Shown piece by piece: positions 2,791 to 63,846 of a stretch of DNA of 64,000 nucleotides. The stretch lies in assembly GCA_040882565.1 (NCBI GenBank), contig JBBEAZ010000024.1, positions 301,137 through 365,136 of the forward strand, given 5' to 3'. A program made the position numbers and the translations under genes. Under the pieces are notes generated by a model that saw only the letters and a program-made list of their open reading frames with translations, was not told the origin of the DNA and did no database searches. Positions within the stretch are counted from its first letter, which is position 1, and each line of letters begins with the position of its first letter. The stretch comes from Dehalococcoidia bacterium (lineage in GTDB: Bacteria; Chloroflexota; Dehalococcoidia; SM23-28-2; RBG-16-64-32).

Positions 2791-2866
2791 GCGTTGCTTA
2801 ACCGGGTCTCAACGCGTACTGCCAATCGGTGTGACCAGCCATTAACATTGTGGTTACCCGTTTGGC

Positions 2867-2895
2867 TTGACACCACGCCCTGGGCGGTCTGTAAT
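2867..2895 (+). promoter_or_regulatory. sigma70-like promoter: TTGACA, 17 nt spacer, TGTAAT
   Basis: Near-consensus -35/-10 hexamers with 17-nt spacer about 40 nt upstream of the AGGAG RBS and ATG at 2938. Confidence 0.35.
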
Positions 2896-2937
2896 GGAAG
2901 CCCAACTAGAGACAGCGCTCCCAACAGGAGGCCGCAT

Positions 2938-3390
2938 ATGAGCACCCGCACCCGAGAATCGGCCGCAGACCGCATTTTCGATAACATTGTCGAGCGGCAG
3001 ACCAGCGTTTTCGACGCCGTCCGCAGTGGCAACGAGCGCGTTCACCGCTTCAATCGCAGCCTGATCGAAGGCGCACGCCAGAGCACCCGTGACTGGGCGG
3101 AAGTCGGCCGCGCCTGGGTCAATAACCCGACTGACCTCGTCAGCATGTACGAAACCGCATCCGAGGCCATCGGCAACTCGCAGGCTCGCTCGCTCGCGCT
3201 CGTTCGTGAGTGGGCCGAAGACACCGTCGAGGCCCAGCGCGAAAGCCGCGAAGTGCTCCGCCAGAGCCTCGGTGACGTGCGAGAGGTCGTGCAGCGTGTG
3301 CAGGAAGGAGCCCCGGAGCTACTCGAACGCGCGCGCACGGCAATCGCCGCCCGCCGCGCCAACGGCGGCACCGCCGGCGCCGAGTCGTAG
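2938..3390 (+). CDS. small alpha-helical protein, phasin-like (PHA granule-associated family pattern); function uncertain
   Basis: ORF 2311..3390 trimmed to the ATG preceded by AGGAG because its 5' part is antisense to folC; heptad-like amphipathic sequence resembling the Phasin_2 family. Confidence 0.45.
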   Translation: MSTRTRESAADRIFDNIVERQTSVFDAVRSGNERVHRFNRSLIEGARQSTRDWAEVGRAWVNNPTDLVSMYETASEAIGNSQARSLALVREWAEDTVEAQRESREVLRQSLGDVREVVQRVQEGAPELLERARTAIAARRANGGTAGAES

Positions 3391-3599
3391 AACAGTCTTC
3401 CGCTGGGCATCAACAGACGGTCCGTGAGCGCCGCGCGCCACGTACTGCTATCTCTATCGGCCAACAGTGTTAGGGTGTTGATACACTTTTCCTACGGATA
3501 GCGATCAACAGGATCGCGCCCTCCCATGCTACGCTTGTTCAGGGAAAGTTTAGCCGCGGTCAGGCTCAGCCTGCCGCTAATCAAACAAGGGAGTCGAAG

Positions 3600-4814
3600 A
3601 TGCAGACGGTAACGGGGTTGCGGCGTGCTCTAACGCCACTAATCGTGCTTGGAATTGCCGCCGGCGTCATTGTCGGCATCGTCTCTGTTGGCGACCGCGC
3701 AGGCGCCAATCATGATGCTATCGCCTGCAACGACGACATACCTGCCGGCTACACCTGCGTGCCCCTGGTCAACAAGCCCGATTCAGGTCCCGGCATCAAC
3801 ACGCCCGCCATCGGCGAGCTCTTCTACCAGTTCGTCGACGCCGATACGATGCGCATCGCCGTCCGCGCGCTGCCCAGCCAGGGCGCCGTCGACGTCGGCA
3901 CGAACCACCAGTTCTGCCTCGACGACGACAACGAGCCCTATGCGTGGCCCACTCCGGGCGCCAACGAGCCCAACCACTGCACGGGCGCCGCCGCAGCTGC
4001 CGTCAACGTCGTCGACGGATCGGCCGGCATCCCGGACTCCAGCGCCGAGCCCGATGATGACACCGCCGCCGGCCTCCTCGGCGAGTACGAAGTGCGAGTG
4101 GCCGGCCTCGTCAGCGACGGCACTGTGGCCAGCATGGACTACTACGAGTTCAACAACATCGACGGCTACTCGTTCTTCGTCTACCACGTCAACATCGGTC
4201 AGTCGTCCACCCAGGCGTTTTGGACCGGTGGCCCACCAGTCGAAACGGCTTCGCCAACGCCATCGCCGACCGCGTCACCGACCGCAACCGCCTCGCCTAC
4301 TGCCACAGCTTCGCCGACCGCAACCGCCTCGCCGACGGCGTCCGCCACAGCGACTGTGATGGGCTCACCCACCGCAACTTCCACACTGGCCGAAGACACG
4401 GCCACGCCGTCACCCACGCCAACGCCGACGAGCACAGCTACCCCGCCGCCCGATACTGACACTCCTGGACCCACGCCAACGCCGACGGGTACACCTACAG
4501 CAACGCCGACGAACCCGCCGACTGCGCCGCCCACTCCGACGCCCTCGCCAACCGCGGAACAGGCTACCCAGACGCCCGCTCCCACCAACACCCCGGCGCC
4601 GACTAATACGCCGGCGCCGACCAACTCGCCGACGCCCACGCCCTCAGCGACCGTCCTCCTCGCCACCGCGACGCCGGTTGGCTTCCCGCCCACCGGTGGC
4701 GGGCCGGCAGCGGATGGCACCACCGCTGGCTTGCTACTGACACTTCTCGCGGGGCTGGCGTTGCTGGCCGCGGGCGGCATGAGCCTCGCCGCGGCCCGCA
4801 CACCCCGCGACTAA
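3600..4814 (+). CDS. secreted or cell-surface protein with Thr/Pro/Ala-rich repeat linker and C-terminal sorting-signal-like tail
   Basis: N-terminal hydrophobic signal/anchor (LIVLGIAAGVIVGIVSV), globular domain, about 150 aa of (ASPTAT)n and (TPAPTN)n repeats, then FPPTGGG followed by a hydrophobic helix and the basic tail ARTPRD; GGGAG RBS. Confidence 0.7.
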   Translation: MQTVTGLRRALTPLIVLGIAAGVIVGIVSVGDRAGANHDAIACNDDIPAGYTCVPLVNKPDSGPGINTPAIGELFYQFVDADTMRIAVRALPSQGAVDVGTNHQFCLDDDNEPYAWPTPGANEPNHCTGAAAAAVNVVDGSAGIPDSSAEPDDDTAAGLLGEYEVRVAGLVSDGTVASMDYYEFNNIDGYSFFVYHVNIGQSSTQAFWTGGPPVETASPTPSPTASPTATASPTATASPTATASPTASATATVMGSPTATSTLAEDTATPSPTPTPTSTATPPPDTDTPGPTPTPTGTPTATPTNPPTAPPTPTPSPTAEQATQTPAPTNTPAPTNTPAPTNSPTPTPSATVLLATATPVGFPPTGGGPAADGTTAGLLLTLLAGLALLAAGGMSLAAARTPRD

Positions 4815-4829
4815 CCCCGCACCGCGCAC

Positions 4830-4877
4830 ACAAAAAACGGGGGTCGGGCATCAGCCCGGCCCCCGAATCTTTTCGTG
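4830..4877. terminator. bidirectional intrinsic terminator between convergent surface-protein gene and clpC
   Basis: 10-bp GC stem (GGGGGTCGGG/CCCGGCCCCC, one G-U pair) with 6-nt loop, A-tract upstream and TCTTTT downstream. Confidence 0.5.
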
Positions 4878-4883
4878 CTTGCT

Positions 4884-7351: not shown

Positions 7352-8353
7352 CTACGGTTTGTGCCCGGCAGTAGCGGCTGAAATCGGCACGACGCCAAAA
7401 ATTCGCACGTTCCCCGGGTTCGGCTCATCAGTCTTGAACTTCGCTTCATAGGGACGGAACCACAATCCCGCCTCCCCTGATCCATCATCACGTGCGCCAG
7501 ACCCATCCATACCGGGAACGAAAAGGCCCGGCCCGAACTGATAGGCGATGCCCCTTGCTAGGCCTAGCTTTGCGTTGCCAGCGACGAAATTCTGGTTCGC
7601 CTCATGCCATACCACCCAAGGCGCGTAATTCTCCACCGGGTCCGCGGATGGGTGAAATGTGCTTCGAGCTAGGCCATTCTGGGTCAGCGAGACTGTCAAC
7701 ACTTCACCATTTATTATCTGGGCGAACTCTGACTTACTGGCCCCCATCCGAATCACTTCCACTAAGGCTGTCTCCACGCCGTCCAGTTGGCGATTCCTGA
7801 TGGCTGCGTCTAGACGTCGACGGCCTGCTCGGTCAATCGACTGGTGAGCACCTATGATCATTGCAAGCCCCCGCCCTGGCTTCTCAACCACAAAATGTTG
7901 GACAGAAAAATGGTCCTTCGTTGCGGTGCTTGAATCTGGAACGAAACCAAGATCTGTGTTGGAAACCACCCAAAGATGGGGTGCCACGGTTTTGCCGTCA
8001 TTCCGGTAGCCTGCTATTGAAAATGCGTGCTGCTTAGGAACATTCCGGATCCGCTCGAAGAGCTTGGTCGCGTGTTCGGCGATGATTTCGACGCCGACTT
8101 CAATCGGCAATTCAACCACGCCTTCAGTGGCCGCCAATTCCGCCAGCCATTGGTCCATGAATTTGCCGTTGTACATTCCGATGCCCGCGAACGTGATGGC
8201 AAACTGGCCATCCTCGGCATTCACGATGACGCCCTTGTTTGCATCATCCTTAATGGAAGACGTGAGCCGGCCCCTCGTATCGAGCATCACCATGCGGCGG
8301 TCAGACGCCTGAATGACGTAGCCCGCGGTAAGAAGGCTTATGTTGATCGTCAT
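7352..8353 (-). CDS. hypothetical protein X of unknown function, low-GC (about 50-53%) gene embedded in the heat-shock operon
   Basis: 333 aa ORF; start overlaps hspR stop in ATGA; 14 nt upstream of clpC start; no recognisable motifs; base composition clearly lower than neighbours. Confidence 0.6.
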   Translation of the reverse strand: MTINISLLTAGYVIQASDRRMVMLDTRGRLTSSIKDDANKGVIVNAEDGQFAITFAGIGMYNGKFMDQWLAELAATEGVVELPIEVGVEIIAEHATKLFERIRNVPKQHAFSIAGYRNDGKTVAPHLWVVSNTDLGFVPDSSTATKDHFSVQHFVVEKPGRGLAMIIGAHQSIDRAGRRRLDAAIRNRQLDGVETALVEVIRMGASKSEFAQIINGEVLTVSLTQNGLARSTFHPSADPVENYAPWVVWHEANQNFVAGNAKLGLARGIAYQFGPGLFVPGMDGSGARDDGSGEAGLWFRPYEAKFKTDEPNPGNVRIFGVVPISAATAGHKP

Positions 8354-8777: not shown

Positions 8778-8870
8778 CACGAAGGTGCAGCGGGGCCGCT
8801 GCCGGGGGGTTCGGGGGGTGTCCCCCCGAGACCCCCTAATTTTTGGGCGGGGGGCGGGGGCAATGCCCCG
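8778..8870 (+). repeat. interspersed structured repeat, copy A (two adjacent GC hairpins plus G-tract tail)
   Basis: CGAAGGTGCAGCGGGGCCGCTGCCGGGGGGTTCGGGGGGTGTCCCCCCGA; shares the core with 4 other copies in this window. Confidence 0.85.
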
Positions 8871-10201: not shown

Positions 10202-10486
10202 ATGTACGCAGTCGTTGGGCAAGTAAAAGTCGACGCTAGCCGCGAGGACGAGGCGCGGAAGGCGCTGGGCGAGATCGTCGTACCACAAGCGAAGTCTTTA
10301 TCTGGTTTCGCCGGCGGCACCTGGCTTCGCGCCGCGCAAGACGACCGTGGGATATCCGTCCTGCTCTTCGAATCAGAGGAAGACGCTCGTGCCGCCGTCG
10401 AACGCATGCGATCACAGGGCCCTCCGCCCGGCACGCCAGCAACGTTTGTCTCTGCTGACCTCTTCGAGGTCGTCGCACAGGCGTAG
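10202..10486 (+). CDS. small ABM-like (antibiotic biosynthesis monooxygenase / Dabb fold) protein
   Basis: 94 aa, GGAAGGAG RBS, alpha+beta barrel-like pattern; weak family assignment. Confidence 0.45.
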   Translation: MYAVVGQVKVDASREDEARKALGEIVVPQAKSLSGFAGGTWLRAAQDDRGISVLLFESEEDARAAVERMRSQGPPPGTPATFVSADLFEVVAQA

Positions 10487-10510
10487 CTGCCCGACGTACC
10501 TTCAGCCGGC

Positions 10511-10592
10511 ATGGTGCAGCGCTCACGCTGCCGGGGGGCTTGGGGGGTGTCCCCCAATCCTCATTTTTCGGGAGGGATGGGGGGTGGGGCGC
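10511..10592 (+). repeat. interspersed structured repeat, copy B
   Basis: GGTGCAGCGCTCACGCTGCCGGGGGGCTTGGGGGGTGTCCCCCAA; hairpin 2 carries compensatory changes (TTGGGGG/CCCCCAA). Confidence 0.8.
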
Positions 10593-10598
10593 ACGCGC

Positions 10599-10994
10599 CT
10601 AGGCGGGCCGGTCCACCCACTCCGCCTCGGGCCCGAGCGCACGCCCACCGATGCAGTGCAGGTGGAAGTGGAACTCCGTCTGGTTGCCGTCCGGCCCGGT
10701 ATTCGTCAACAGGCGAAAGCCGGACTCAGCGACACCCAACTGACGCGCCAGCGCGCCCACCACCGTGAACAACCGCCCAGCCAGCGGCGCGTCCGCTTCC
10801 GTCAGCTCCAGCGCATCGCGGATGTGCCGGCGCGGGATCACAATGAAGTGCACGGGCGCACGCTTGTTCGGGTGGCTGTCCGGAATGTCGATCGCGACCA
10901 CCAGGTCATCTTCGTGTAGAAGCGTCGCGCTCGTGCCGCCGGCTGCGATCCGGCAGAACAGGCAGCCGTCGTCAGATACTTCCGGCGGTGGCAA
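10599..10994 (-). CDS. HIT-family (histidine triad) nucleotide hydrolase
   Basis: CLFCRI N-terminal motif and HFHLH histidine triad. Confidence 0.85.
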   Translation of the reverse strand: MPPPEVSDDGCLFCRIAAGGTSATLLHEDDLVVAIDIPDSHPNKRAPVHFIVIPRRHIRDALELTEADAPLAGRLFTVVGALARQLGVAESGFRLLTNTGPDGNQTEFHFHLHCIGGRALGPEAEWVDRPA

Positions 10995-16898: not shown

Positions 16899-17000
16899 CA
16901 CGAAGGTGCAGCGGAGCTGCTGCTGGGGGTTCGGGGGGTGTCCCCCGACCGAATAACATCTCGGGCCGGACGCCTGCCCGCCGTAGGCTGGGGTGGGCCG
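16899..17000 (+). repeat. interspersed structured repeat, copy C
   Basis: CACGAAGGTGCAGCGGAGCTGCTGCTGGGGGTTCGGGGGGTGTCCCCCGA plus AACATCTCGGGCC tail. Confidence 0.85.
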
Positions 17001-17079: not shown

Positions 17080-17180
17080 CGCGAAGGTGCAGCGGAGCCG
17101 CTGCCGGGGGTTCGGGGGGTGTCCCCCGACCAACCACCATCCCCTGGGGGGTGGGGGGGCGAACATCTCGGGGCCCGAAG
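17080..17180 (+). repeat. interspersed structured repeat, copy D (tandem with copy C, about 80 nt apart)
   Basis: GCGAAGGTGCAGCGGAGCCGCTGCCGGGGGTTCGGGGGGTGTCCCCCGA plus GGGGGGTGGGGGGG and AACATCTCGGGGCC. Confidence 0.85.
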
Positions 17181-17267: not shown

Positions 17268-19472
17268 ATGCCCCGAAGTATGCTGCTCGCCGCCCCGCTC
17301 GCCGCCTGCGCGATCGCACTCGCCTGTGGCGGCAACGGCGACGGCGATCCAGGCACGACCGATCGCCCCCAAACTCCCAAGGAGACCGCCGAGCGCTGGC
17401 TCGAACTCTGGAACGACGACCAGTTCGACGACATGTGGGACCTCGTCGCCACGGAATCGCGCGCGGCCACCGACAAACAGACCTTCACCGACCGCTATGC
17501 CGCAATCAAGGACGCGGCGACGATCACCGGCATCGATTATGAACTCGAGCCCGAAAGCAGTGTCACGCCGGCGCCGGCCGATCCTCTCGACGACGAGGAC
17601 CTTCCAGAAGGCGCAGTCAAGGTACCTTTCGACGTCACCTTCCACACCTCGTTCTTCGGCGACTTCCCGGACACGAACTCGATGCCGCTAATCCAGGAAG
17701 AGGTCATCGTGCCGGCCGCCGAGGAGGGCGGCGACCCCTCAACGCACGACGAATGGCGCGTGCTCTGGACACCGTCGCTCTACTTCAGCACCCTCGACGA
17801 GACCTCGCTCGTGCACTTCTTCCAGCGCGTGCCCCGGCGCGGCACAATCTACGATCGCAATGGCCAACCCCTGGCTGTCGACGCCGACCTGCCCGTCATC
17901 GGCATCGTCCTCGACCTGATCACCGACGAGGAAGCGACCATCGCCGCTCTCAGCCAGGGCCTCGGCGGCGCGGACGCCGAAGTGCGCGCCGTCTTCGCCC
18001 AGGCGCACGCGCAACCGACTTACTATTTCGTCCCCGTTAGAACGCTGCCATACGGCACCAGCGACGCCGACGTCCAGAAGTTCCGGGATATGGTCCAACT
18101 CGGCGTCGTCGTCCGTGAGGAGACGCAACGCTACTACCCGCACAACTCGGCGGCGGCGCACGTCCTGGGCTACATGACGGAGGTCACTGAGGAGCAACTC
18201 GTAGACCTTGCCGAAAAGGGCTTCGGCCCCGGAGACCTGATCGGCGCGGCCGGTCTCGAAGGGCAGTACGAGGACACGCTCTCCGGCAACCGCGGCGGCC
18301 TCCTGGCCACTGTCAGCCCCGAGGGCACGATCACCGCAACGATCGCCGAGAAGGCATCCGAGCCCGGCAAGGACATCTGGCTGACCATCGACATCGCGGT
18401 GCAAGAACGCGCCGAAGCAGAGCTCGGCGAGCGACCAGGCTCAATCGTCGCCATGGACCCGCGGGATAACTCGGTCGTGGCACTGGCCTCCTACCCGCGC
18501 TTCGACCCCAACGCCTTCATCCGTGGCCTGACGTCGGATGAGGCCAACAGCCTGTTCAACAACCCGCAGCTGCCGTTCCTCAACCGCGCGTTGCTAGCCG
18601 AGTATCCGCCGGGCTCGACCTTCAAGCCGGTAACAATGGCGGCGGGAATCGAGAAAACCTCCTTCGAGACAGGGTCGACGATCCATTGCGTGCCCGTCTG
18701 GACAGGCCTCGGCGAGGACTATCCGCAGAAGAACTGGCAGACGGTGGACCGCGGTTTCCTGACCCCCGCGGAGGGCCTGATGGCCTCCTGCAACCCGGTT
18801 TTCTTCGAGCTGGCCAAAGCGCTGGACGAGGTCGACGAGAACGTGTTCCCGCAATTCATCCGCCAGTTCGGTTACGGTGCCCCAACCGGCATCGGCATGG
18901 AGGAAGCGTCCGGGCTCGTGCCGGACCCGGCGTGGAAAGAGGAGAACATCGGCGAGGCCTGGTTCCGCGGCGACGCCGTCAACATGGGCATCGGCCAGGG
19001 CTACGTTCTCGCCACGCCGATCCAGATCATCAACGCCTACTCGGCGATCGCCAGCACCGGCATCCTCCGCAAGCCGCTGCTCGTCTGGCGCGTCGGCGAG
19101 CCCTCGGCCGGCGGCGGCGTCGCCGTCCAGGAGTTCAAAGCCGAAGAAATCGCCCCGCTGCCGGTCACCCAGGAGACGCTGGACTCGATCCGCTACGGCC
19201 TCTACCTCGTGACCCAGAGCGCCGGCGGTACGTCCTACGCTGCCTGGGCCGGCACCAGCGTCGACGTCGCCGGCAAGTCCGGCACGGCCGAAGACCTGCA
19301 GGAGGGCGCCGACCACGTCTTCTTCGTCGCGTACGCCAACCGCGGCGACCCCAGCCTCGTCACCCTCGGCGCCCTCGAGACCGGCGAGTCCGGCTCGCGC
19401 GAGGTCGCGCCCATGCTCCGACGCCTGCTCGAGCAGTTCACGGGACTGACGCCGCTCGGTACGCTGCCCTAG
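17268..19472 (+). CDS. mrdA: penicillin-binding protein 2 (peptidoglycan D,D-transpeptidase) with lipoprotein-like N-terminus and an extra N-terminal domain
   Basis: SxxK (GSTFKP), SxN and KSGTAE motifs; dimerisation domain; N-terminal LAACAIALAC lipobox-like signal. Confidence 0.85.
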   Translation: MPRSMLLAAPLAACAIALACGGNGDGDPGTTDRPQTPKETAERWLELWNDDQFDDMWDLVATESRAATDKQTFTDRYAAIKDAATITGIDYELEPESSVTPAPADPLDDEDLPEGAVKVPFDVTFHTSFFGDFPDTNSMPLIQEEVIVPAAEEGGDPSTHDEWRVLWTPSLYFSTLDETSLVHFFQRVPRRGTIYDRNGQPLAVDADLPVIGIVLDLITDEEATIAALSQGLGGADAEVRAVFAQAHAQPTYYFVPVRTLPYGTSDADVQKFRDMVQLGVVVREETQRYYPHNSAAAHVLGYMTEVTEEQLVDLAEKGFGPGDLIGAAGLEGQYEDTLSGNRGGLLATVSPEGTITATIAEKASEPGKDIWLTIDIAVQERAEAELGERPGSIVAMDPRDNSVVALASYPRFDPNAFIRGLTSDEANSLFNNPQLPFLNRALLAEYPPGSTFKPVTMAAGIEKTSFETGSTIHCVPVWTGLGEDYPQKNWQTVDRGFLTPAEGLMASCNPVFFELAKALDEVDENVFPQFIRQFGYGAPTGIGMEEASGLVPDPAWKEENIGEAWFRGDAVNMGIGQGYVLATPIQIINAYSAIASTGILRKPLLVWRVGEPSAGGGVAVQEFKAEEIAPLPVTQETLDSIRYGLYLVTQSAGGTSYAAWAGTSVDVAGKSGTAEDLQEGADHVFFVAYANRGDPSLVTLGALETGESGSREVAPMLRRLLEQFTGLTPLGTLP

Positions 19473-25531: not shown

Positions 25532-25662
25532 GAGCGCACGATACCACCGGATTACCGAACGGAGCGCCAACCACGTACCAAGGCACCGGTAGGGGCGTCG
25601 GCCGTGGCGGACCTCGACCTACCACGCTCCGATCGTGCAACAACCCTCGCGCTCAACACAAC

Positions 25663-25777
25663 GCGAAGGTGCAGCGGAGCCGCTGCTGGGGGTTCTGGGG
25701 TGTCCCCCCGAGATCTCAATCTTTTGGGGGCGGGGCGGGGCGGCAACCCCCAGGATCGCGAAGGTGGAGCACCACGC
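25663..25777 (+). repeat. interspersed structured repeat, copy E (with partial second core)
   Basis: CGCGAAGGTGCAGCGGAGCCGCTGCTGGGGGTTCTGGGGTGTCCCCCCGAG plus TTGGGGGCGGGGCGGGGCGG G-tract, then GCGAAGGTGGAGC again. Confidence 0.85.
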
Positions 25778-25824
25778 ACGCCACCAACGCAGGGTGCGGC
25801 AGCCACTCTGTGTATATTCTCCCC

Positions 25825-26964
25825 ATGCGAATCGTCATCTCCCCACAGGAGTACAAAGGCACCCTCACCGCCGAAGAGGCCGCAGCCGCAATGGCACAGG
25901 GCGCACGCCGCGCTCTCCCGGACGCAGACCTCGACGTAGTGCCGCTGCCGGACGGCGGCCCAGGCACCGTTCGTGCCATCGTCTCGATTACTGGCGGCGA
26001 CATCCGCCCCACGCGCGTTCAGGACCCCCGCGGCCGACCCGTCGACGCCGAATGGGCGCTCCTCCCCGACGGCAGCGCCGTCATCGAAATGGCTGCCGCG
26101 TCCGGCCTGGTCCTCGTACCGGAAAACGAACGTGACCCACGCTCCGCCACAACGAACGGCGTCGGCGAGCTCCTGCGCGCCGCGCTCGACGCCGGGGCCC
26201 GTCGCCTGATCATCGGCCTCGGCGGCAGTGCTACGAACGACGGCGGCGGCGGCATGACGGCCGCCCTCGGCGGCCGTTTCCTCGACGACGCAGGCCACGA
26301 GCTGCCGCCCGGCGGCGCGGCGCTTGCCCACCTCGCTCGTATCGATGTGACTAACCTCGACCCGCGCGTCCGTGAGGCCGAAATCGTCGGCGCGAGTGAT
26401 GTCACGAATCCGCTCTGCGGCCCCGAAGGCGCGTCCCTCATCTACGGCCCCCAGAAGGGCGCATCGCCACAAGTCGCCCGCGAGCTCGACCTCGCCCTGA
26501 AGAACTACGCCCGCGTCGTTGCGCGAGACCTTGGGGTGAGCGTGGCGGACGTGCCCGGCGCCGGCGCTGCCGGCGGTCTTGGCGCGGGCCTGATCGCCTT
26601 CCTCGGCGCAGACATTCGTCCCGGCGTCGAGGTCGTCGCCGCCGTCGTCGGCCTGCGCGAACGCCTGCAGGGTGCAGACCTCGTCCTCACCGGCGAAGGC
26701 CGCCTCGACGGCCAAACCCGCTACGGCAAGACCGTCGCCGGTGTCGCCCGCATGGCCTCGGACGCAGGCGTCCAGGTGATCGTGGTCCCCGGTACGCTCG
26801 GCGATGGCTGGGAATCAATCCTGTCGCTTGTCGCACACGTGGAGGCCATCGTTGCACAAGACGTAACACCCGAAGACGCAATGTCGCGGCCCGCTGAGCT
26901 ACTGGCGGCGACGGTCGAGCGCGTTCTCATGGGAGCAGGGCGTCGCGGCCCGACCGAGCCGTAG
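25825..26964 (+). CDS. glxK: glycerate kinase (GarK/GlxK family); ORF track from 25669 trimmed to MRIVISPQ
   Basis: Family-typical N-terminus MRIVI.PDSFKG-like and C-terminal GAGAAGGLGAGL, LVLTGEGRLDGQT motifs. Confidence 0.85.
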   Translation: MRIVISPQEYKGTLTAEEAAAAMAQGARRALPDADLDVVPLPDGGPGTVRAIVSITGGDIRPTRVQDPRGRPVDAEWALLPDGSAVIEMAAASGLVLVPENERDPRSATTNGVGELLRAALDAGARRLIIGLGGSATNDGGGGMTAALGGRFLDDAGHELPPGGAALAHLARIDVTNLDPRVREAEIVGASDVTNPLCGPEGASLIYGPQKGASPQVARELDLALKNYARVVARDLGVSVADVPGAGAAGGLGAGLIAFLGADIRPGVEVVAAVVGLRERLQGADLVLTGEGRLDGQTRYGKTVAGVARMASDAGVQVIVVPGTLGDGWESILSLVAHVEAIVAQDVTPEDAMSRPAELLAATVERVLMGAGRRGPTEP

Positions 26965-31527: not shown

Positions 31528-31605
31528 TGGTCGGGGTGGGCGGATTCGAACCGCCGACCTCACGGTCCCGAACCGTGCGCTCTAACCTGGCTGAGCTACA
31601 CCCCG
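31528..31605 (-). tRNA. tRNA-Pro (anticodon CGG), CCA encoded
   Basis: Reverse complement CGGGGTGTAGCTCAGCCAGGTTAGAGCGCACGGTTCGGGACCGTGAGGTCGGCGGTTCGAATCCGCCCACCCCGACCA folds as a cloverleaf with a 7-bp acceptor stem and GGTTCGAATCC T-arm. Confidence 0.9.
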
Positions 31606-35180: not shown

Positions 35181-35912
35181 CTAGCGCGCACCCTTCTTCG
35201 TCATCACGAGAATGACGGTGCGAAGCAGGATCATCAGGTCGACGGTCAGAGGGTGGCGGCGCACGTAGCGCAGGTCGTAGCGGACCTTTTCGTAGTGCGT
35301 GAGGTCGGAGCGGCCGTTGACCTGCGCGAGGCCAGTCATGCCGGGCTTGACCTGGTGCCTCTGCCGGAACTGCGCCGGCCACGCTGCAACGATGTCCGGG
35401 ATGTCCGGACGCGGGCCGACGAGGGTCATGTCGCCCTTGACGACGTTCACGAGTTGCGGCAGTTCGTCGACGGTCGTCTTGCGCAGGGTCCAACCGATCG
35501 CAGTGGCGTGCTTCGGGCGGCCGCGCGGGCTAAGCAGGCGGTTCATCAGGTCGCCGGTCGGGAGCCGCTCGGCAAGATCGCTGCTGGCGCGGTTGTGGTG
35601 CATCGTGCGGAACTTGAGGAAACGAAACGCGCGGCTGTTGAGACCGATCCGGTCCTGCTTGATGAGCACGGGTCCCGGCGATTCGAGCTTGATCAGGGCG
35701 GCAGCGAGCGCAAACACCGGCCAGAGTATGCCGATCATCATCCCGCCCACGGTGATGTCGATCAGGCGCTTGACCGGCGAAGTTGGCCCGGTCTCGACGC
35801 GGTCGGGGATTTCTGGATACGACTCCGTAGCCTCCGGGACGGGCTCAGCCGACTGGCCGTTCGACCCGCTGCGCGAAGCCGGCGACACCAGTTCGTCGGC
35901 CGGGTCGCGCAC
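35181..35912 (-). CDS. initiating sugar phosphotransferase (small bacterial sugar transferase, WbaP/PglC type)
   Basis: Bacterial sugar transferase C-domain ([20 protein letters not shown]); single re-entrant helix N-terminus. Confidence 0.85.
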
Positions 35913-36868
35913 TAGCGTCGCGCTCCGGCGGCGATCAACTCGGCCACCTGCGGCGTGCGCATGTGCTCTACGAGCGCCTCTCGCCAGGGACGCAGCGTGA
36001 TACCGAGGACGGCTGCGCGGTTGTTTGCGAGCGTCGAGTCGACCGGCTTGCGGAAGGGTAGGTTGAAGTCAGCCTGGACAGCGCCTTCGGTTGGCACATC
36101 GATGCCGGCGAGCCGAAGGACTTCCCGGGCCCACTCAAGCCTCGAACAACCGTCGCCCCCACCGGCCAGGTGGTAGACGCCGTACTCGCCGGTCTCGATA
36201 AGCTGTGCGATTGCCGCGGCAAGGTCGTGTGTCCACGTTGGCGTAGCGATCTCGTCTGTGACCCCGCGGACGCGGCCGTCAGCAAACGCGCGCTCGACGA
36301 TCTTCTCCGGGAAACTGACCCGTCCTGGGCCATACACCCATGAGGTTCGGACAATGTAGTGCTTCTCGGTCTCCCCCCGCACAGCGATTTCACCTGCAAG
36401 CTTCGACCGGCCATATTCGTTGACCGGGTTCGGAGTGTCCTCTTCTTCGTACGGGGCCTTCCTCGTGCCCTCGAAGACTTCGTTGCTGCTGATCTGCACC
36501 ATCGCAGCTCCAATTTGCGCGGCGGCCCGTGCCACATTCGCCGCTCCCTGCGAATTCACTTGAAGGGCGCGCCCGGGGTCACGCTCGCAGCCAGTCGTGT
36601 CGGTCCAAGCCGCGCAGTTGATGACGATCTCCGGTTCTTCGCCCGTTACAGCCTCGGCGACAGCGTCTTCGTCCGCGATGTCTAACGGTTTAGCAACATT
36701 GTGTCTGTATCGACGCTCGTGGTGGGCGTAGAGGGAAAGGTAATTGTTCTTTCCTCCCTTACGCCACGCCGCGGCGCGGCCATCGGTCCCCAGTTCAAGC
36801 TGGAGTGCACGCCCCAATTGCCCGTCTGCCCCGGTGATCAGGATGCGGTGGCGCCATTCCATTTTCAC
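35912..36868 (-). CDS. rfbD: dTDP-4-dehydrorhamnose reductase with about 30-aa low-GC insertion near the N-terminus
   Basis: RmlD pattern ([25 protein letters not shown]) interrupted by [35 protein letters not shown]. Confidence 0.8.
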
Positions 36869-37320
36869 TTAACTACGCCTTGTTCAAGCTCCTCCTGAGT
36901 GTACTCGACCTGCTCATCCTTGAGATCCGGATCGTAGGGCGGGTCAGGATAGTTGACGAGCCAACCTTCTTCCGGACCGATGTTTTCGAGGCCGGTGGCC
37001 ACGTTCTTCGGGATGAAGAGGCGTTTGGGCGCAGCTGCGTCGAGGATATGTTCTTCACGGACCCATGTCGTCCTGCCACCGGATGCAGTCGGCTGGTAGA
37101 GGATGATCCGCATGCGGCCCTTGAGGCAGACGTAGCGCGCGGACCGAACACGGTGCAGGTGATAGCCCTTGAAAGCGCCAGGCGTCGCGGCGGAGAGATA
37201 GACCTCGGTCAGGTGGCCGTCGGGGCTCTTAAACAGCTCGATCAAGAACCCGTTCTCGTTGCCGCCGTGGTCTTTGGTGGTGACGCGCTTCGCGGACTCT
37301 TCGCTGACTCGGTCGATCAT
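36865..37320 (-). CDS. rfbC: dTDP-4-dehydrorhamnose 3,5-epimerase-family cupin (short form); ORF track to 37536
   Basis: RmlC-like cupin motifs (KGYHLHR, NYPDPPYDPDLKDE); 151 aa. Confidence 0.7.
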   Translation of the reverse strand: MIDRVSEESAKRVTTKDHGGNENGFLIELFKSPDGHLTEVYLSAATPGAFKGYHLHRVRSARYVCLKGRMRIILYQPTASGGRTTWVREEHILDAAAPKRLFIPKNVATGLENIGPEEGWLVNYPDPPYDPDLKDEQVEYTQEELEQGVVK

Positions 37321-37324
37321 CGCC

Positions 37325-38365
37325 CTAGTCTGGGCCACGTGGCTTCGCTTCAGCAAGCCGTTTGCCGTACTGCTTCTCGTAGTACGCTTGGAAATCGGCG
37401 TCGCGCACCTTCTCCCACCACCAGCGGTTCTGTAGATACCACTCGACTGTCTTTTCGAGCGTTGCCTTGAAGTCGTGGCGAGGGTGCCAGCCCAGCGCCT
37501 GAATCTTCGAGGAGTCCAAGAAGTAGCCGCGGTCATGGCCTGCGCGGTCCTCGACGAAACGAATGAGGCTGCGCGGCTTCTCCAGCAGGTCGAGGATCAT
37601 TTCCGCCACCTCAAGGTTCGGGCGCTGGTTACCGGCGCCAATGTTGTAGGCCTCGCCCGGCACGCCTTCGTGGAGCAGCAGGTCGAGCGCCTCGCAGTGG
37701 TCTTCGACGAAAAGCCTGTCACGGGTCTGCTGGCCGTCGCCGTAGATCGGCAAGGGCAGCCCCTGCATAGCGTTGGTCGCGCAGAGTGGCACGAACTTCT
37801 CGACGTGCTGGCGGGGGCCAACGTTATTTGCCGGTCGCGCGACGACGACCGGCAGGTCGTAGGTCTCGACGTAGGCGCGACACTGCATCTCACCACCGGC
37901 CTTGCTCGCTGAGTAGGGGCTACGCGGCTTGAAGACGTCGGTCTCGACGGAAGGCAGGTCCGTCGGCAGGACCTCGCCGTAGACCTCATCGGTCGAGATG
38001 TGCAGGAAGCGCTGGAGGTGCATGTTCTGCCGTGCCGCCTCAAGAAGAGTGTAGGTACCGAAGACGTCGGTCTGGATAAACGAGCCGGGCTCCATCAGCG
38101 AGCGGTCAACGTGCGTCTCCGCGGCGAAGTGAGCGACATAGTCGGCATCCGGCATCAGCTTGCCGACGACCACCGGATCACAGATGTCACCCTGGACGAA
38201 GCGGTAGCGCGGGTCATCAGCGACGTCGCGGAGGTTGTCGGGGTTCCCGGCGTAGGTCAGCTTGTCGAGATTGATGACGCTAGCATCTAGATGCTCCTGG
38301 AGGAGACGGACGATGAAGTTACTACCGATGAAGCCGCAACCGCCTGTGACCAGGTAAGTGGTCAC
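37325..38365 (-). CDS. rfbB: dTDP-glucose 4,6-dehydratase
   Basis: TGGCGFIGSN, YSASKAG, full RmlB pattern. Confidence 0.9.
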   Translation of the reverse strand: MTTYLVTGGCGFIGSNFIVRLLQEHLDASVINLDKLTYAGNPDNLRDVADDPRYRFVQGDICDPVVVGKLMPDADYVAHFAAETHVDRSLMEPGSFIQTDVFGTYTLLEAARQNMHLQRFLHISTDEVYGEVLPTDLPSVETDVFKPRSPYSASKAGGEMQCRAYVETYDLPVVVARPANNVGPRQHVEKFVPLCATNAMQGLPLPIYGDGQQTRDRLFVEDHCEALDLLLHEGVPGEAYNIGAGNQRPNLEVAEMILDLLEKPRSLIRFVEDRAGHDRGYFLDSSKIQALGWHPRHDFKATLEKTVEWYLQNRWWWEKVRDADFQAYYEKQYGKRLAEAKPRGPD

Positions 38366-39501
38366 TCGGGGATCTCGATCCTGGAGTGGTCGCCGAGCGT
38401 CAGCGCGTAACCCGCGCCGCCGCCGTGCCCACCCGCCAACTCGACATTTCGGCCGATCATGCTCTTAACGATGGGCCAGTGCAGGTCTTCGATCCGGCTG
38501 TCTTCCATGACGATACTGTCCTCGATGCGACAGCCCTTGATCCGGCAGCGCGCATCGATCGAAGTGTTTGGACCGACGTAGGAGTCGATCACTTCAGCGC
38601 CCGCGCCGATGATCAGCGGGCCGCGGAGGACGCTGTTCTCGATCCGCGCGCCGGCTTCGATGACGACCGGCTCGTACACCCGAGTCTTTTCGTCGATCTC
38701 GCCGTCGCGGCGGTCGCTGAGCGTGCCGAGGACCATACGGTTGGCGTTCAGGATGTCGTCCATCTTGCCGGTGTCTATCCAGTAACGGTCCATCACCTCG
38801 GCGCGGACCCGGGCGCCGCGGTCGATCAGACCCTGGATTGCGTCCGTGATCTCGAGTTCGCCGCGCCATGACGGCTTCAGCGTCGCGATGACGTCATGTA
38901 CGGCTGGGTCGAATATGTAGATGCCGATGACGGCAAGGTTTCCCATCGGCTCCTTCGGCTTTTCGACGATGCGTGTGACAACGTCGTCCGTTAGTTGGGC
39001 GATGCCGAAAGCTTCCGGGTTGGAGACGGGATGGAGGAGGATCTGCGAGCCTTGGCCCGCGGCGCAGTGCTTCTCGACGTACGGCTGGATGCCGCCGAGC
39101 ACGAAGTTGTCGCCCAGGTAGAGGACAAATGGTGAGTCGCCCAAGAACCCATGCGCGGTGCGTACAGCGTGGGCGATGCCGCCGGGCTTGTCCTGCTGAA
39201 CGATCGTGATGTTTGCGCCGAACTGGGAGCCATCGCCGACCGCTGCCATCACCTGCTCGGCGGTGTCGCCAACGACGACGCCGATGTCGGTGATGCCGCA
39301 CTCGACGAGTTGCTCGATCGCGTAGAAGAGCACCGGCTTGTTGGCGATCGGCACGAGTTGCTTGGCATTGGTGTAGGTGAAGGGGCGAAGGCGGCTGCCG
39401 ACGCCGCCGCTGAGGACGAGGCCCTTGAGCGCGCCATCGGCGGCGCCACTCGCGGACGGGGCTGCGGGATCCCGGCTGGTCGTCGTGGTCGTGGTTGCCA
39501 T
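38362..39501 (-). CDS. rfbA: glucose-1-phosphate thymidylyltransferase (long form with C-terminal left-handed beta-helix)
   Basis: LKGLVLSGGVGSRLRPFTYTNAKQL nucleotidyltransferase motif plus hexapeptide-repeat C-domain; about 25-aa N-terminal extension if ATG 39501 is used. Confidence 0.85.
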   Translation of the reverse strand: MATTTTTTSRDPAAPSASGAADGALKGLVLSGGVGSRLRPFTYTNAKQLVPIANKPVLFYAIEQLVECGITDIGVVVGDTAEQVMAAVGDGSQFGANITIVQQDKPGGIAHAVRTAHGFLGDSPFVLYLGDNFVLGGIQPYVEKHCAAGQGSQILLHPVSNPEAFGIAQLTDDVVTRIVEKPKEPMGNLAVIGIYIFDPAVHDVIATLKPSWRGELEITDAIQGLIDRGARVRAEVMDRYWIDTGKMDDILNANRMVLGTLSDRRDGEIDEKTRVYEPVVIEAGARIENSVLRGPLIIGAGAEVIDSYVGPNTSIDARCRIKGCRIEDSIVMEDSRIEDLHWPIVKSMIGRNVELAGGHGGGAGYALTLGDHSRIEIPE

Positions 39502-51294: not shown

Positions 51295-51320
51295 AGGGCA
51301 GGCGCGAAAGTGGAGCAGAG

Positions 51321-51647
51321 TTGGCCTCAAAAGTAGACCGCATACAGGACGAGAGCCTGCGCACGGCGCTGCAGGACGCCCAGACTGCGCTCCGCACGGG
51401 CGACTACAAGAAGGTCGTCGAGTTGGCTTCAGGCGCCTACGTAGAGCTGCTGCGCCGCAAGCCCGAACTGCTGCAGGGCCAGGCGCAGTTCATGAGCGTG
51501 ATGTTTTTCCCGCGCCTCGGCGCCCATCTCGTCGTCAACACCAACGGCGTGCCGGAGATCGTCTGGGACCGCGAGAAGTTCATCTTCTCGGAGGCGATCA
51601 CTTACTACGAATACACAGTCGACAACCTGATCAAGAACAAACTCTAG
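51321..51647 (+). CDS. possible small protein (108 aa, TTG start after GGAG)
   Basis: In-frame tail of track ORF 50454..51647 beyond the LLM stop; lower-GC 3' end; no family recognised. Confidence 0.25.
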   Translation: MASKVDRIQDESLRTALQDAQTALRTGDYKKVVELASGAYVELLRRKPELLQGQAQFMSVMFFPRLGAHLVVNTNGVPEIVWDREKFIFSEAITYYEYTVDNLIKNKL

Positions 51648-51679
51648 CCGACAATGGGTGCGGGGTAACCGCAGCGGAG

Positions 51680-62529: not shown

Positions 62530-63846
62530 CTACGGCGCGCCTCCCCAGCGGTCAGGGTCGTTGTCCGAAGGACGCGCCGGTGTGCTCCCCCAACGATCGC
62601 TGCTGCTACTGCTGTCTGCAGGTGGCGGCGCGCTCGGAGTGCGAGTCCACGGCGGTAGTGGCGGAGTTGGACTAGCCTCCGGTTCGTGGGCCGGCGCCCC
62701 GGGGTTGTCGTACTTGAACGGATCGTCAGGCGCCGTGTGTGACGGGTCGACCGCCGGCGCGCTCGCGTATGAGGGTGCGCTCGAAGCCGGCGCGGGCGCC
62801 ATCGTGGGCGCCTGGCTCGCGGACGACGCGACCGGCGCGCTCGCCGTCTTAGTCTTTGGTTTGAGCCACGGCATCATGCCCCGCAGCTCGGCGCCGACGC
62901 CCTCGATCATGTGCTCGGCGTTCTGGCGGCGCAGCGCGAGGAAGCTCGGCCGGCCGGCCTGGTTCTCCAGGATCCACTCGCGGGCGAACGCGCCACTGCG
63001 GATGTTCTGCAGCACCTGCTTCATGTTCTGGCGCACGTGGTCGTCAATCACCTTCGGGCCGCGGGTGTAGTCGCCGTACTCGGCCGTGTCCGAGATCGAG
63101 TAGCGCATGTAGGCCATGCCGCCCTCGTGCATCATGTCGACCAGCAGCTTCAGTTCGTGCATGCACTCGAAGTAGGCGATCTCCGGCTGGTAGCCGGCCT
63201 GCACCAGCGTCTCGAACGCGGTCTTTACCAGCGCTGTCACGCCGCCGCAGAGCACCACCTGCTCGCCGAAGAGGTCCGTCTCCGTCTCTTCCTCAAACGT
63301 CGTTTCGATGATCCCCGCCTTGGCTGAGCCGATCCCGCGGCCGTAGGCCAGCGCCATCTCGCGGGCGTTCTCGGTCGCGTTCTGGTGCACCGCGATGATC
63401 GCGGGTACGCCGTTGCCGTCGACGTACGCCTCGCGCACCTTGTGACCGGGCGCCTTCGGGGCGATCATCGTCACGTCGACGTCCGCCGGCGCGACGATCT
63501 GGTTGTAGTGGATGTTGAAGCCGTGCGCGAACATCAGCATGTTGCCGGCCTCCAGGCCGGGCTCGATGCTCTCGTAGTAGATCTGCTTCTGCACCTGGTC
63601 TGGCGCCAGCACCATCAGGATGTCCGCTTCGCGGGCTACTTCCTCGACCGTACCGACCCGCAGGCCGGCCATCTGCGCCTGCTGCCAGGAACTCGACCCC
63701 GGATAGAGGCCGACCATCACGTTCATCCCGCTATCGCGCAGGTTCAGCGCGTGGGCGTGTCCCTGCGAGCCGAAGCCGATGATCCCGATCGTCTTCCCCT
63801 TCAGCAGGTCAAGGTTCGCGTCGTTCTCGTAGTAAATCTTGGGCAT
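62530..63846 (-). CDS. ilvC: ketol-acid reductoisomerase with about 100-aa Pro/Ser/Ala-rich C-terminal extension
   Basis: N-terminal Rossmann ([17 protein letters not shown]), class I KARI core of about 330 aa, then low-complexity tail. Confidence 0.9.

Follow-up and report, generated by a model that had tools for sequence, protein, structure and literature searches.

We describe a repeat made of two adjacent hairpins in a 64,000-nucleotide stretch of the chromosome of an uncultured Dehalococcoidia bacterium (assembly GCA_040882565.1, contig JBBEAZ010000024.1, positions 301,137 to 365,136 of the forward strand; this whole stretch is called the window throughout). The window holds five copies of the element, and our analysis leads us to suggest, tentatively and with somewhat less than even confidence, that they belong to a previously undescribed, single-strand-hairpin repeat family, similar to repetitive extragenic palindromes (REPs), that spreads and duplicates in intergenic DNA. 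We regard as established that the family exists, how it is built and distributed, that it covaries and that it occurs in one of two homologous operons and not in the other. Among the readings considered, the REP-like one fits best with the dispersed and tandem copies, the presence in one of two rml operons, the tagged palindrome that forms the basic unit and the occurrence of relatives in other genomes, phages and plasmids. For a sparsely sampled lineage without cultured members, the element would be an addition in the form of a so far unannotated repeat or structural motif that is absent from Rfam and from the literature searched.

A discrete family of two-hairpin repeats

A covariance model (R1) of the ~55-nt core, built from the window copies, finds exactly five copies in the 64 kb, all on the + strand, at 64.9 to 80.1 bits. 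Run without filters, it reaches at most 16.4 bits elsewhere in the 64 kb, on the reverse strands of the same copies, and this difference in score shows that the two-hairpin repeat is a real, discrete family. Each half of the core has 4 matches at up to 3 mismatches, compared with 0.00 to 0.03 expected from 100 shuffles, and a repeat finder places all five copies in one family (D3). All of these approaches confirm the places and the strand that the original prediction, made from the letters of the window, had given for the five copies.

The core runs through AGGTG, hairpin 1 (GCAGCG/CGCTGC), CYGGGGG-TT and hairpin 2 (G-run/C-run), followed by a variable pyrimidine- and G-rich tail. The 5' end of the element reads (R)CGAAGGTG. 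Hairpin 1 of the window copies is GCAGCG(G)-loop-(C)CGCTGC, the linker to hairpin 2 is CYGGGGG(G)TT, and hairpin 2 pairs a G-run with a C-run around a loop of TGT or GTGT, its basal pair being C-G or T-A. On its 3' side lies a pyrimidine- or T-rich AAYMTYTYGGG and then G-tracts of differing length. Beyond a weak GCGC motif, the flanks of the copies are unrelated.

Both hairpins covary

Covariation was assessed in 27 copies from the host genome and its relatives. Hairpin 1 is 96% paired in this set, with one pair found as GC in 17 and CG in 9 copies and another as GC in 11, CG in 6 and AU in 3. Hairpin 2 is present in all 27 copies as 24 different stems, with four to five pair types at positions 5 to 8 from the loop; these pairs were counted by a loop-anchored tabulation, as realignment to the covariance model misregistered hairpin 2 (63% paired). 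The hairpin-2 segment, compared with its shuffles, has a mean z of -2.7. The unpaired nucleotides GGUG and CCGGGG-U are conserved while both hairpins covary. Imperfect pairs are G.T on the + strand in copy C and A.C in copy F of the source genome and in copy L009a of a related genome (G.U on the other strand), and the wobble pairs thus show no preference for a transcribed strand.

The view that the structure itself is conserved therefore stands, resting on copies outside the window, in which a hairpin-1 pair changes from C-G to G-C and hairpin 2 takes its 24 forms. The original prediction had drawn it from copy B, where both stems were said to carry compensatory changes. Only one of the two does, so that the changes in copy B do not carry the claim: hairpin 2 has exchanged C-G for T-A, while in hairpin 1 the loop has changed and the innermost pair is lost (GG-AG-CC to GC-TC-AC), leaving the 6-bp GCAGCG/CGCTGC stem unchanged. 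The description of the adjacent hairpins as perfect was right as to the two hairpins and went too far as to their pairing, in that hairpin 1 of copy C includes a G.T pair and copy E has a slipped hairpin 2. Copies outside the window, covariation and the lack of any prior annotation in our searches all agree with a new structured family.

Both hairpins have a G-rich 5' tag in common, and a viral contig (L048, from IMG/VR) carries two identical 25-nt units in direct tandem. From the shared tag and this direct tandem, we read the module as two paralogous tagged palindromes arranged head to tail.

Seven copies at five loci of the source genome

Contigs L021 and L026 lengthen the readable sequence by ~10 kb on the left and 8.4 kb on the right, respectively, which brings the part of the source genome that was covered to ~82 kb. 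Two further copies, F and G, lie ~8 kb beyond the right edge of the window (L026 353-270 and 156-70, reverse strand), in the same orientation as the window copies, and form a tandem duplication of 197 bp just 3' of a response-regulator/histidine-kinase pair. The total is seven copies at five independent loci in ~82 kb, or about one per 12 kb, all on one strand. Placement of five loci on one strand has a chance probability of 1/16 and is suggestive only. Local tandem duplications take in the flanks (C/D, 181 bp; F/G, 197 bp; L009a/b, 158 bp). The Logan contig L020 begins exactly at the core of copy E, which we infer to be the expected signature of near-identical copies elsewhere in that sample that split the assembly graph.

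The window has a GC content of 65% and is ordinary chromosome with housekeeping and polysaccharide genes; its genes include no transposase. The gene contexts that had been assigned to copies A to E agree with our gene calls. The five loci have no gene context in common, as the copies occupy an antisense junction within an operon, a convergent gap, two divergent regions and a site 3' of a two-component pair.

Copy A (8778..8870, +; 71 bits with R1) occupies the junction from the dnaJ stop (8897) to the hspR start (8730 or 8769) and is antisense to the - strand operon dnaJ-hspR-hypothetical-clpB. Its hairpin 1 (8787-8802) is GCAGCGG-GG-CCGCTGC, and its hairpin 2 (8811-8829), TCGGGGGG-TGT-CCCCCCGA, is lengthened by an outer GGGGG/CCCCC helix. 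The tail consists of TAATTTTT, G-tracts and a possible third hairpin, GCGGGG-GCAATG-CCCCGC. Regulation by HspR through this copy was rejected, since the window contains no HAIR (HspR) site. The hypothetical protein beside copy A (7352-8353) has five distant relatives only (at most 41% identity), on contigs that are not syntenic.

Copy B (10507..10592, +) lies in the convergent gap 20 nt past the stop of an ABM-like gene (94 aa, 10202-10486, +), which has a strong ribosome-binding site and is a real gene; its other neighbor is a HIT gene on the - strand with its stop at 10599. It starts with CATGG, where CGAAGG had been read, and contains hairpin 1 at 10516-10531 (GCAGCG-CTCA-CGCTGC), hairpin 2 at 10540-10557 (TTGGGGG-GTGT-CCCCCAA) and a tail of TCCTCATTTTTC then GGGAGGGATGGGGGGTGGGG. 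A near-consensus promoter (TTGACT-17-TACAAT, 9985-9957, -) lies 500 bp from this copy and ~10 nt before the dnaJ ATG (9946), which implies a leaderless or very short-leader dnaJ-hspR-clpB operon.

Copies C (16899..17000, +) and D (17080..17180, +) form a tandem pair, of which C is the first, with 181 bp spacing in the divergent region between an MFS gene (-) and the PBP2 gene (+), and the 3' end of D lies ~70-90 nt before the PBP2 start. Hairpin 1 of copy C, with its one G.T pair, is at 16908-16923 and its hairpin 2 at 16931-16948. Copy D, which has the top score (80.1 bits), has its hairpins at 17089-17104 and 17112-17129, followed by a 28-nt C-run/G-run insert. An extra motif, AACATCTCGGG, had been noticed in two copies and is found in exactly these two, at 16955-16965 and 17162-17172.

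Copy E (25662..25770, +) lies in the divergent region between an aldo-keto reductase gene (-) and a glycerate kinase gene (+, ATG at 25825), with hairpin 1 at 25671-25686, an imperfect (slipped) hairpin 2 at ~25694-25711 and a tail of AATCTTTT and G-tracts. It is flanked by a 14-nt direct repeat, CGCGAAGGTG[C/G]AGC, at 25662 and 25757, and the 3' repeat corresponds to the first 14 nt of another unit. Distances from elements to start codons range from 144 to 229 nt. Forty nucleotides upstream of copy E, at 25588-25623, a 36-nt palindrome, GGTAGGGGCG...CGACCTACC, is headed by GTAG on either side and resembles a small REP doublet of the class that is associated with RAYTs (REP-associated tyrosine transposases).

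Two coding or folding properties were rejected as traits of the family. G5+ runs are concentrated in the elements (16 of the window's 33 runs fall within the five copies), and a G-quadruplex was dismissed as a family trait given that the canonical motif is confined to copy B. A small open reading frame (ORF) inside the element was rejected as well, because indels shift the frame between copies.

Relatives in other genomes, phages and plasmids

An exact-pattern scan covered one genome per GTDB species and the JGI metagenome contigs with a pattern that fixed the GCAGCG stem and was therefore blind to a GCAGGG variant. Of the 12 matches among GTDB species, only 2 are true relatives, both in Dehalococcoidia metagenome-assembled genomes (MAGs; loci L001 and L009, the two MAGs being SRP136066_co1_19 and SRP263991_co7_909), and the six matches to this pattern in the JGI contigs are all chance. 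L001 carries one copy, 229 nt upstream of a gene that resembles a P450 N terminus (with no Pfam match). L009 carries three copies on one strand, sense to the operon, in the order rmlA-[two copies]-rmlC-rmlD-[one copy]-rmlB, and one of them has the hairpin-1 stem CAGGGA/TCCCTG, which differs by two compensatory changes. In the window, the genes of rmlA-B-C-D (35912-39501) abut or overlap and have zero copies between them. The L009 copies are placed exactly at both junctions where the order of the rml genes departs from that of the window. Of two homologous rml operons, one thus has the element and the other lacks it, and this contrast, together with the varied neighbors, shows that the element is not bound to particular genes. 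Variants are lineage specific (the hairpin-2 base is TTC...GA or TTT...AAA), and tails differ by lineage. At L009 5730-5960 (-), 5' of the copies, we also observed simple tandem GGCTCATAGCTCAT units.

A six-frame peptide profile of the element retrieved two soil-metagenome "proteins" that are three to four tandem copies read in different frames, and their back-translation implies a GCAGGG/CCCTGC stem; neither has a DNA record. A second protein search with a single concatenated element sequence gave no matches.

This variant exists as real DNA in about 13 IMG/VR contigs, in the form GGGTGCAGGG(G)-loop-(C)CCCTGCC-NGGG(G) with a second hairpin directly after it, and one of the scans that were run imposed no second hairpin. 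Phage status was verified for one of the ~13 contigs (L027 + L029), a true tailed phage whose genes include terminase, portal, major head, endolysin and holin; its three copies lie between genes, two sense and one antisense. Phage copies begin 3-6 nt past a stop codon, and 20-40 nt separate their ends from a ribosome-binding site and ATG, as in the gap between endolysin and holin. TAGCCCC tandem units lie 3' of two phage copies (L029 6750-6790 and L027 925-945). Searches of viral contigs for other hairpin-1 stem variants found only chance or coding matches, with no second hairpin, and the same was true when non-complementary bases were permitted at the variable hairpin-1 position. Among cultured phages (INPHARED), no match was convincing, and records of Microviridae, which are phages with single-stranded DNA (ssDNA), gave weak 25-nt matches that are borderline (E = 0.04-0.4).

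Three other contigs contain arrays of hairpin-1-like GGGGTGCAGGGGG-TCA-CCCCCTGC with no hairpin 2 (L038 480-660, L041 1540-1915 and L044 3000-3410), with a spacing of ~93 nt in L038 and ~123 nt in the other two. The L038 array is just 5' of a gene that we read by eye as terminase, and such arrays may be a packaging or replication signal. A tRNA-like sequence at L037 5000-5095 (acceptor stem, one arm and the T-arm GGTGCAGGGTTCGACTCCCTGCCGGGGCA), not called by ARAGORN, fits the hairpin-1 pattern including both flanks and lacks hairpin 2; it is a true T-arm/acceptor look-alike.

Plasmids were searched by blastn of a phage copy against PLSDB, in which the window form of the element has no match. 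In pNOR-2000-type and Xanthomonas plasmids, a hairpin-1-type unit lies in the intergenic region between traA (MOBQ relaxase) and traC, and in pNOR-2000, it is followed by a second inverted repeat and GTAAGTGCGC, which agrees with NWACCNNTAAGTGCGCCCTYNN, the published consensus of MOBQ origins of transfer (oriT) (PMC3832669). A similar unit lies 16 nt upstream of the mobC-relaxase operon of Paracoccus pLM20P2, and in a Gloeothece plasmid, where the spacer is AT-rich, it stands out as a GC-rich island 2.1 kb from mobC-relaxase. We regard the plasmid matches, which are short, as a lead and not as proof.

Other features of the window

Several observations concern other parts of the window. A MAG assembly of the same organism (GCA_040876785.1) breaks at window 18924-18978, where its contigs JBBDPA010000040.1 and JBBDPA010000031.1 have ~55 bp in common; the assembly to which the window belongs is therefore the more contiguous of the two. 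Imperfect tandem repeats (D1 and D4), rich in ACG, CCG and GCC codons, occupy 4242-4644 within a gap with no called gene (2791-4883) and may be part of a Pro/Thr/Ala-rich repetitive protein. The ketol-acid reductoisomerase ORF at 62530-63846 (-) has ~110 extra C-terminal residues past KARI_C that are rich in Pro, Ser and Ala, and it is a product with no gene on record, the MAG gene table being empty there. A probable unannotated + strand ORF of ~110 aa at 51295-51650 is preceded by CGCGAAAGTGGAGC, which is the 3' direct repeat of copy E with a single mismatch.

Discussion

The basic unit, as we read it, is a GC-rich palindrome after a conserved unpaired G-rich tag (GGGG-T-G/T), and two such units, head to tail, make up the module. 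Unit 1 is kept in sequence (GGTG-GCAG[C/G]G...C[G/C]CTGC-C) and unit 2 mainly as a hairpin, after which degenerate further units or plain G-/C-rich tails follow. Mobility and an HUH enzyme are what we infer from this picture: the non-coding elements would land or persist in intergenic DNA whatever the neighboring genes, multiply in place through tandem duplication and pass between genomes, phages and plasmids. Their hairpins would be recognized in ssDNA by a trans-acting HUH enzyme of the Y1 transposase or relaxase type, as REPs, IS200/IS605 ends and oriT sites are. Where copies are transcribed in operons, the hairpins probably also form mRNA stem-loops, possibly as partial terminators or stabilizers.

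Several points weigh against a REP-like mobile family. We found neither a transposition event nor an empty site, and no target-site signature either, and the rml comparison is not a clean empty-site test, as it sets distant genomes (~50% amino acid identity) with different gene orders side by side. No candidate enzyme is linked to the element: none of the ~82 kb holds a RAYT flanked by it, and the sole nearby Y1/RAYT-like gene is flanked by a different REP. Inverted dimers are lacking among the copies, every unit and every copy being arranged head to tail on one strand. Part of the uniformity of hairpin 1 in phage copies stems from the search patterns with which these copies were found. At 25-43 nt and E = 0.009-0.4, the plasmid matches are short, and the plasmids' second hairpin plus nick motif has no homology to hairpin 2 of the window. 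Copy number and orientation are known for ~82 kb of the source genome. Finally, where flanking genes share a strand, eight copies are sense and two are antisense, and compact phage genomes keep two to three copies in the narrow space just past stop codons and 20-40 nt before ribosome-binding sites; both of these findings favor a role in RNA.

Such a role would be that of an intercistronic structured RNA on the G-rich (sense) strand, either an RNase processing site, an end-stabilizing stem-loop or a partial terminator or attenuator, in which a conserved host factor reads hairpin 1 and its unpaired flanks and phages and hosts share the element through that factor. We consider this, the main rival reading, possible, if on the whole unlikely. 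The covariation of both hairpins with conserved GGUG and CCGGGG-U would be explained, as would the excess of sense copies, the tight placement between phage genes, the three sense copies within the rml operon of L009 and the position of copies B and F/G just 3' of co-oriented genes. The sense bias, however, is not significant (one-sided p ~0.05), two of the copies inside operons (A and the phage copy v1) are antisense, and C/D and E occupy divergent regions, where they seem to be placed upstream of the downstream genes' promoters. The putative promoter elements concerned are a -10-like TATATT at 25813-25818, 6 nt before the glycerate kinase ATG, and a TAAGAT that precedes PBP2, both read by eye. 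Moreover, the copies have no gene class in common, folding energies are unremarkable for the base composition (z of -2.0 to +0.2), the wobble pairs favor neither strand and no Rfam family matches. If the copies were instead independently transcribed small RNA genes, which was among the possibilities of the original prediction, the stable two-hairpin structure and the T-run after hairpin 2 in copies A, B and E would find an explanation; this idea did not hold up, and we regard it as very improbable, as the promoter scan is blank at the elements and no promoter is conserved upstream of them, the flanks are unrelated beyond the weak GCGC, the T-run is missing from C, D, F, G and the phage copies, only B is terminator-like and the 3' boundaries are ragged.

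The occurrence of a hairpin-1-type unit beside the oriT repeat and nick motif of Ti-type MOBQ plasmids, and at the mobC-relaxase operon of an unrelated plasmid, also raises the idea of a signal for handling ssDNA that is not itself mobile, such as a site for complementary-strand priming (ssi) or a relaxosome accessory site, acting during conjugation, phage replication or lagging-strand synthesis. The weak Microviridae matches and the placement of all seven source-genome copies on one strand are in line with it, but the former could be chance. The element strand of the source genome is opposite to most genes and has a slightly negative GC skew, whereas the L009 copies are co-oriented with all genes, and by these weak proxies, the orientation to replication is inconsistent. 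In addition, it is hard to see what a chromosome would do with priming or oriT-accessory sites by the dozen, and the 82 kb examined contain no relaxase or conjugation gene, so that we think such a signal improbable. More doubtful still are duplex binding sites for a regulator or a nucleoid-associated protein. All copies are intergenic, three of the five source-genome loci are upstream of genes, and sequence conservation in and around hairpin 1 is strong, yet compensatory changes and freely varying hairpin-2 stems are not expected of a sequence-specific duplex site, there is no shared regulon or HspR (HAIR) site, the distances to start codons are spread widely, and copies also occur inside operons and phages.

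A broader proposal concerns the hairpin-1 unit itself (GGGG-TGCAGGGG-loop-CCCCTGCC, with the GCAGCG variant here), whose range takes in Chloroflexota chromosomes, tailed phages, cyanobacterial and proteobacterial plasmids and soil metagenomes. That this unit and a second hairpin form a cross-phylum recognition module with one conserved activity is a speculation to which we give a rather low probability. Such a module could be a new kind of hairpin-guided mobile DNA, with neither terminal inverted repeats nor target-site duplications, in phages, plasmids (at oriT) and chromosomes; alternatively, it could be a new functional RNA, a processing signal or a catalytic motif, common to phages and hosts.

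These elements matter in several respects. The intergenic DNA of Dehalococcoidia MAGs is otherwise uncharacterized, and the occurrence in phages and beside oriT makes the family a candidate marker of genetic exchange, for example, for phage-host linking, and a candidate substrate for ssDNA enzymes. If it acts in RNA, a new intercistronic element common to phages and hosts would be added. The repeats also break short-read assemblies and sit at rml rearrangement junctions and hence affect MAG quality and synteny analysis.

Comparison with known systems

No Rfam 15 family matches the elements of the window, host or phage loci at gathering thresholds (the best sub-threshold matches reach at most 20 bits, compared with thresholds of at least 50), and literature searches, some of them with the sequence itself, turned up no description of the element. 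The Chloroflexi-1 RNA motif (RF01698) is a multi-copy candidate RNA from the same phylum that is reported only from Chloroflexus aggregans (PMC2864571); it does not match the studied elements at E <= 10 in cmscan. An intrinsic terminator was considered, and only copy B passes the scan, while C/D and E have no upstream co-oriented gene. ARAGORN calls no tRNA at the elements of ten phage loci, the hairpin-1 loops are not T-loops (TTCRANY), and the window's only Rfam tRNA match is at 31531-31605; a tRNA origin was rejected along with an attC site, as the motifs are absent. An outward promoter inside the element was likewise discarded, the spacing being inconsistent and the scan blank.

Repeated, similar hairpins between phage genes, mostly in sense, are familiar from the RNase III sites of T7 and the PeSL cassettes of T4. 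To our knowledge, these stem-loops are phage specific and not dispersed in host chromosomes, and we found no sequence similarity between them and the studied element.

Like MITEs, the miniature transposable elements with inverted repeats, the copies are small, non-coding, dispersed intergenic repeats of ~100 bp; unlike MITEs, they have neither terminal inverted repeats nor target-site duplications. A repeat search of the copies and their flanks yields internal hairpins only, and target-site duplications were looked for around the copies with a negative result, as there are no copy-specific flanking direct repeats and the 14-nt repeat of copy E is the element's own 5' end. The suggestion of a REP- or MITE-like mobile element is thus best kept in its REP-like half.

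The ends of IS200/IS605 elements and PATEs share with the studied element strand-specific hairpins, the lack of terminal inverted repeats and target-site duplications, and an orientation bias, and the subterminal hairpins of IS200/IS605 are read as ssDNA by an HUH Y1 enzyme. In contrast, the 3' boundary of our element is ragged and no conserved target tetranucleotide was identified; in the ~82 kb, neither a full-length IS with these ends nor TnpA/TnpB was found. The MOBQ oriT resembles the module in its succession of hairpin, short spacer and second hairpin, and the hairpin-1-type unit of pNOR-2000 is near-identical to the phage form and immediately 5' of the oriT inverted repeat and nick motif. 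This look-alike has both the nick motif and the relaxase, whereas window copies lack the nick consensus TAAGTGCGCCCT and a nearby relaxase and occur many times per genome.

The closest resemblance is to REPs and REPINs with their RAYTs. REPs carry an unpaired GTAG (GT[AG]G) or CGTC tag at one end, and in REPINs, inverted dimers (head-to-head or tail-to-tail) predominate, with head-to-tail arrangements being rare (PMC3733652). The ~82 kb do contain a Y1/RAYT-like gene of 159 aa (L021 19717-20196), which scores 65.6 bits against NF047646 (cut-off, 80). This gene, ~8.5 kb left of the window on contig JBBDPA010000040.1, is flanked by inverted GGTAGGGGCGCYGCTTGCYGCGCCC (L021 19640-20340), a GTAG-headed palindrome that is unrelated to the studied element and essentially absent from the window. 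This is the arrangement of a classical RAYT/REP pair, and with a different palindrome at its flanks, the gene is not evidently a partner of the studied element.

The element has the size and setting of a 20-40 bp multi-copy extragenic palindrome, with units of 16-19 nt plus tag and seven modules in ~82 kb, all intergenic. It shares with REPs and REPINs the short GC-rich extragenic palindromes, the unpaired tag, the covarying stem, multiple and clustered copies, variability between lineages and the lack of terminal inverted repeats and target-site duplications. It differs from them in its tag, which is (A/G)GGTG before hairpin 1 and GGGG(G)T(T/G) before hairpin 2, with GTAG and CGTC absent on either strand, in its head-to-tail order, in its fixed module of two non-identical units with a variable tail and in its further occurrence in phages and near plasmid oriT regions. 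Classical REPs are mobile and also serve as mRNA stem-loops, and the REP-like and RNA readings of our element are likewise not mutually exclusive. Should an HUH enzyme handle the element, the REP/RAYT paradigm would gain a new class of tag and head-to-tail units.

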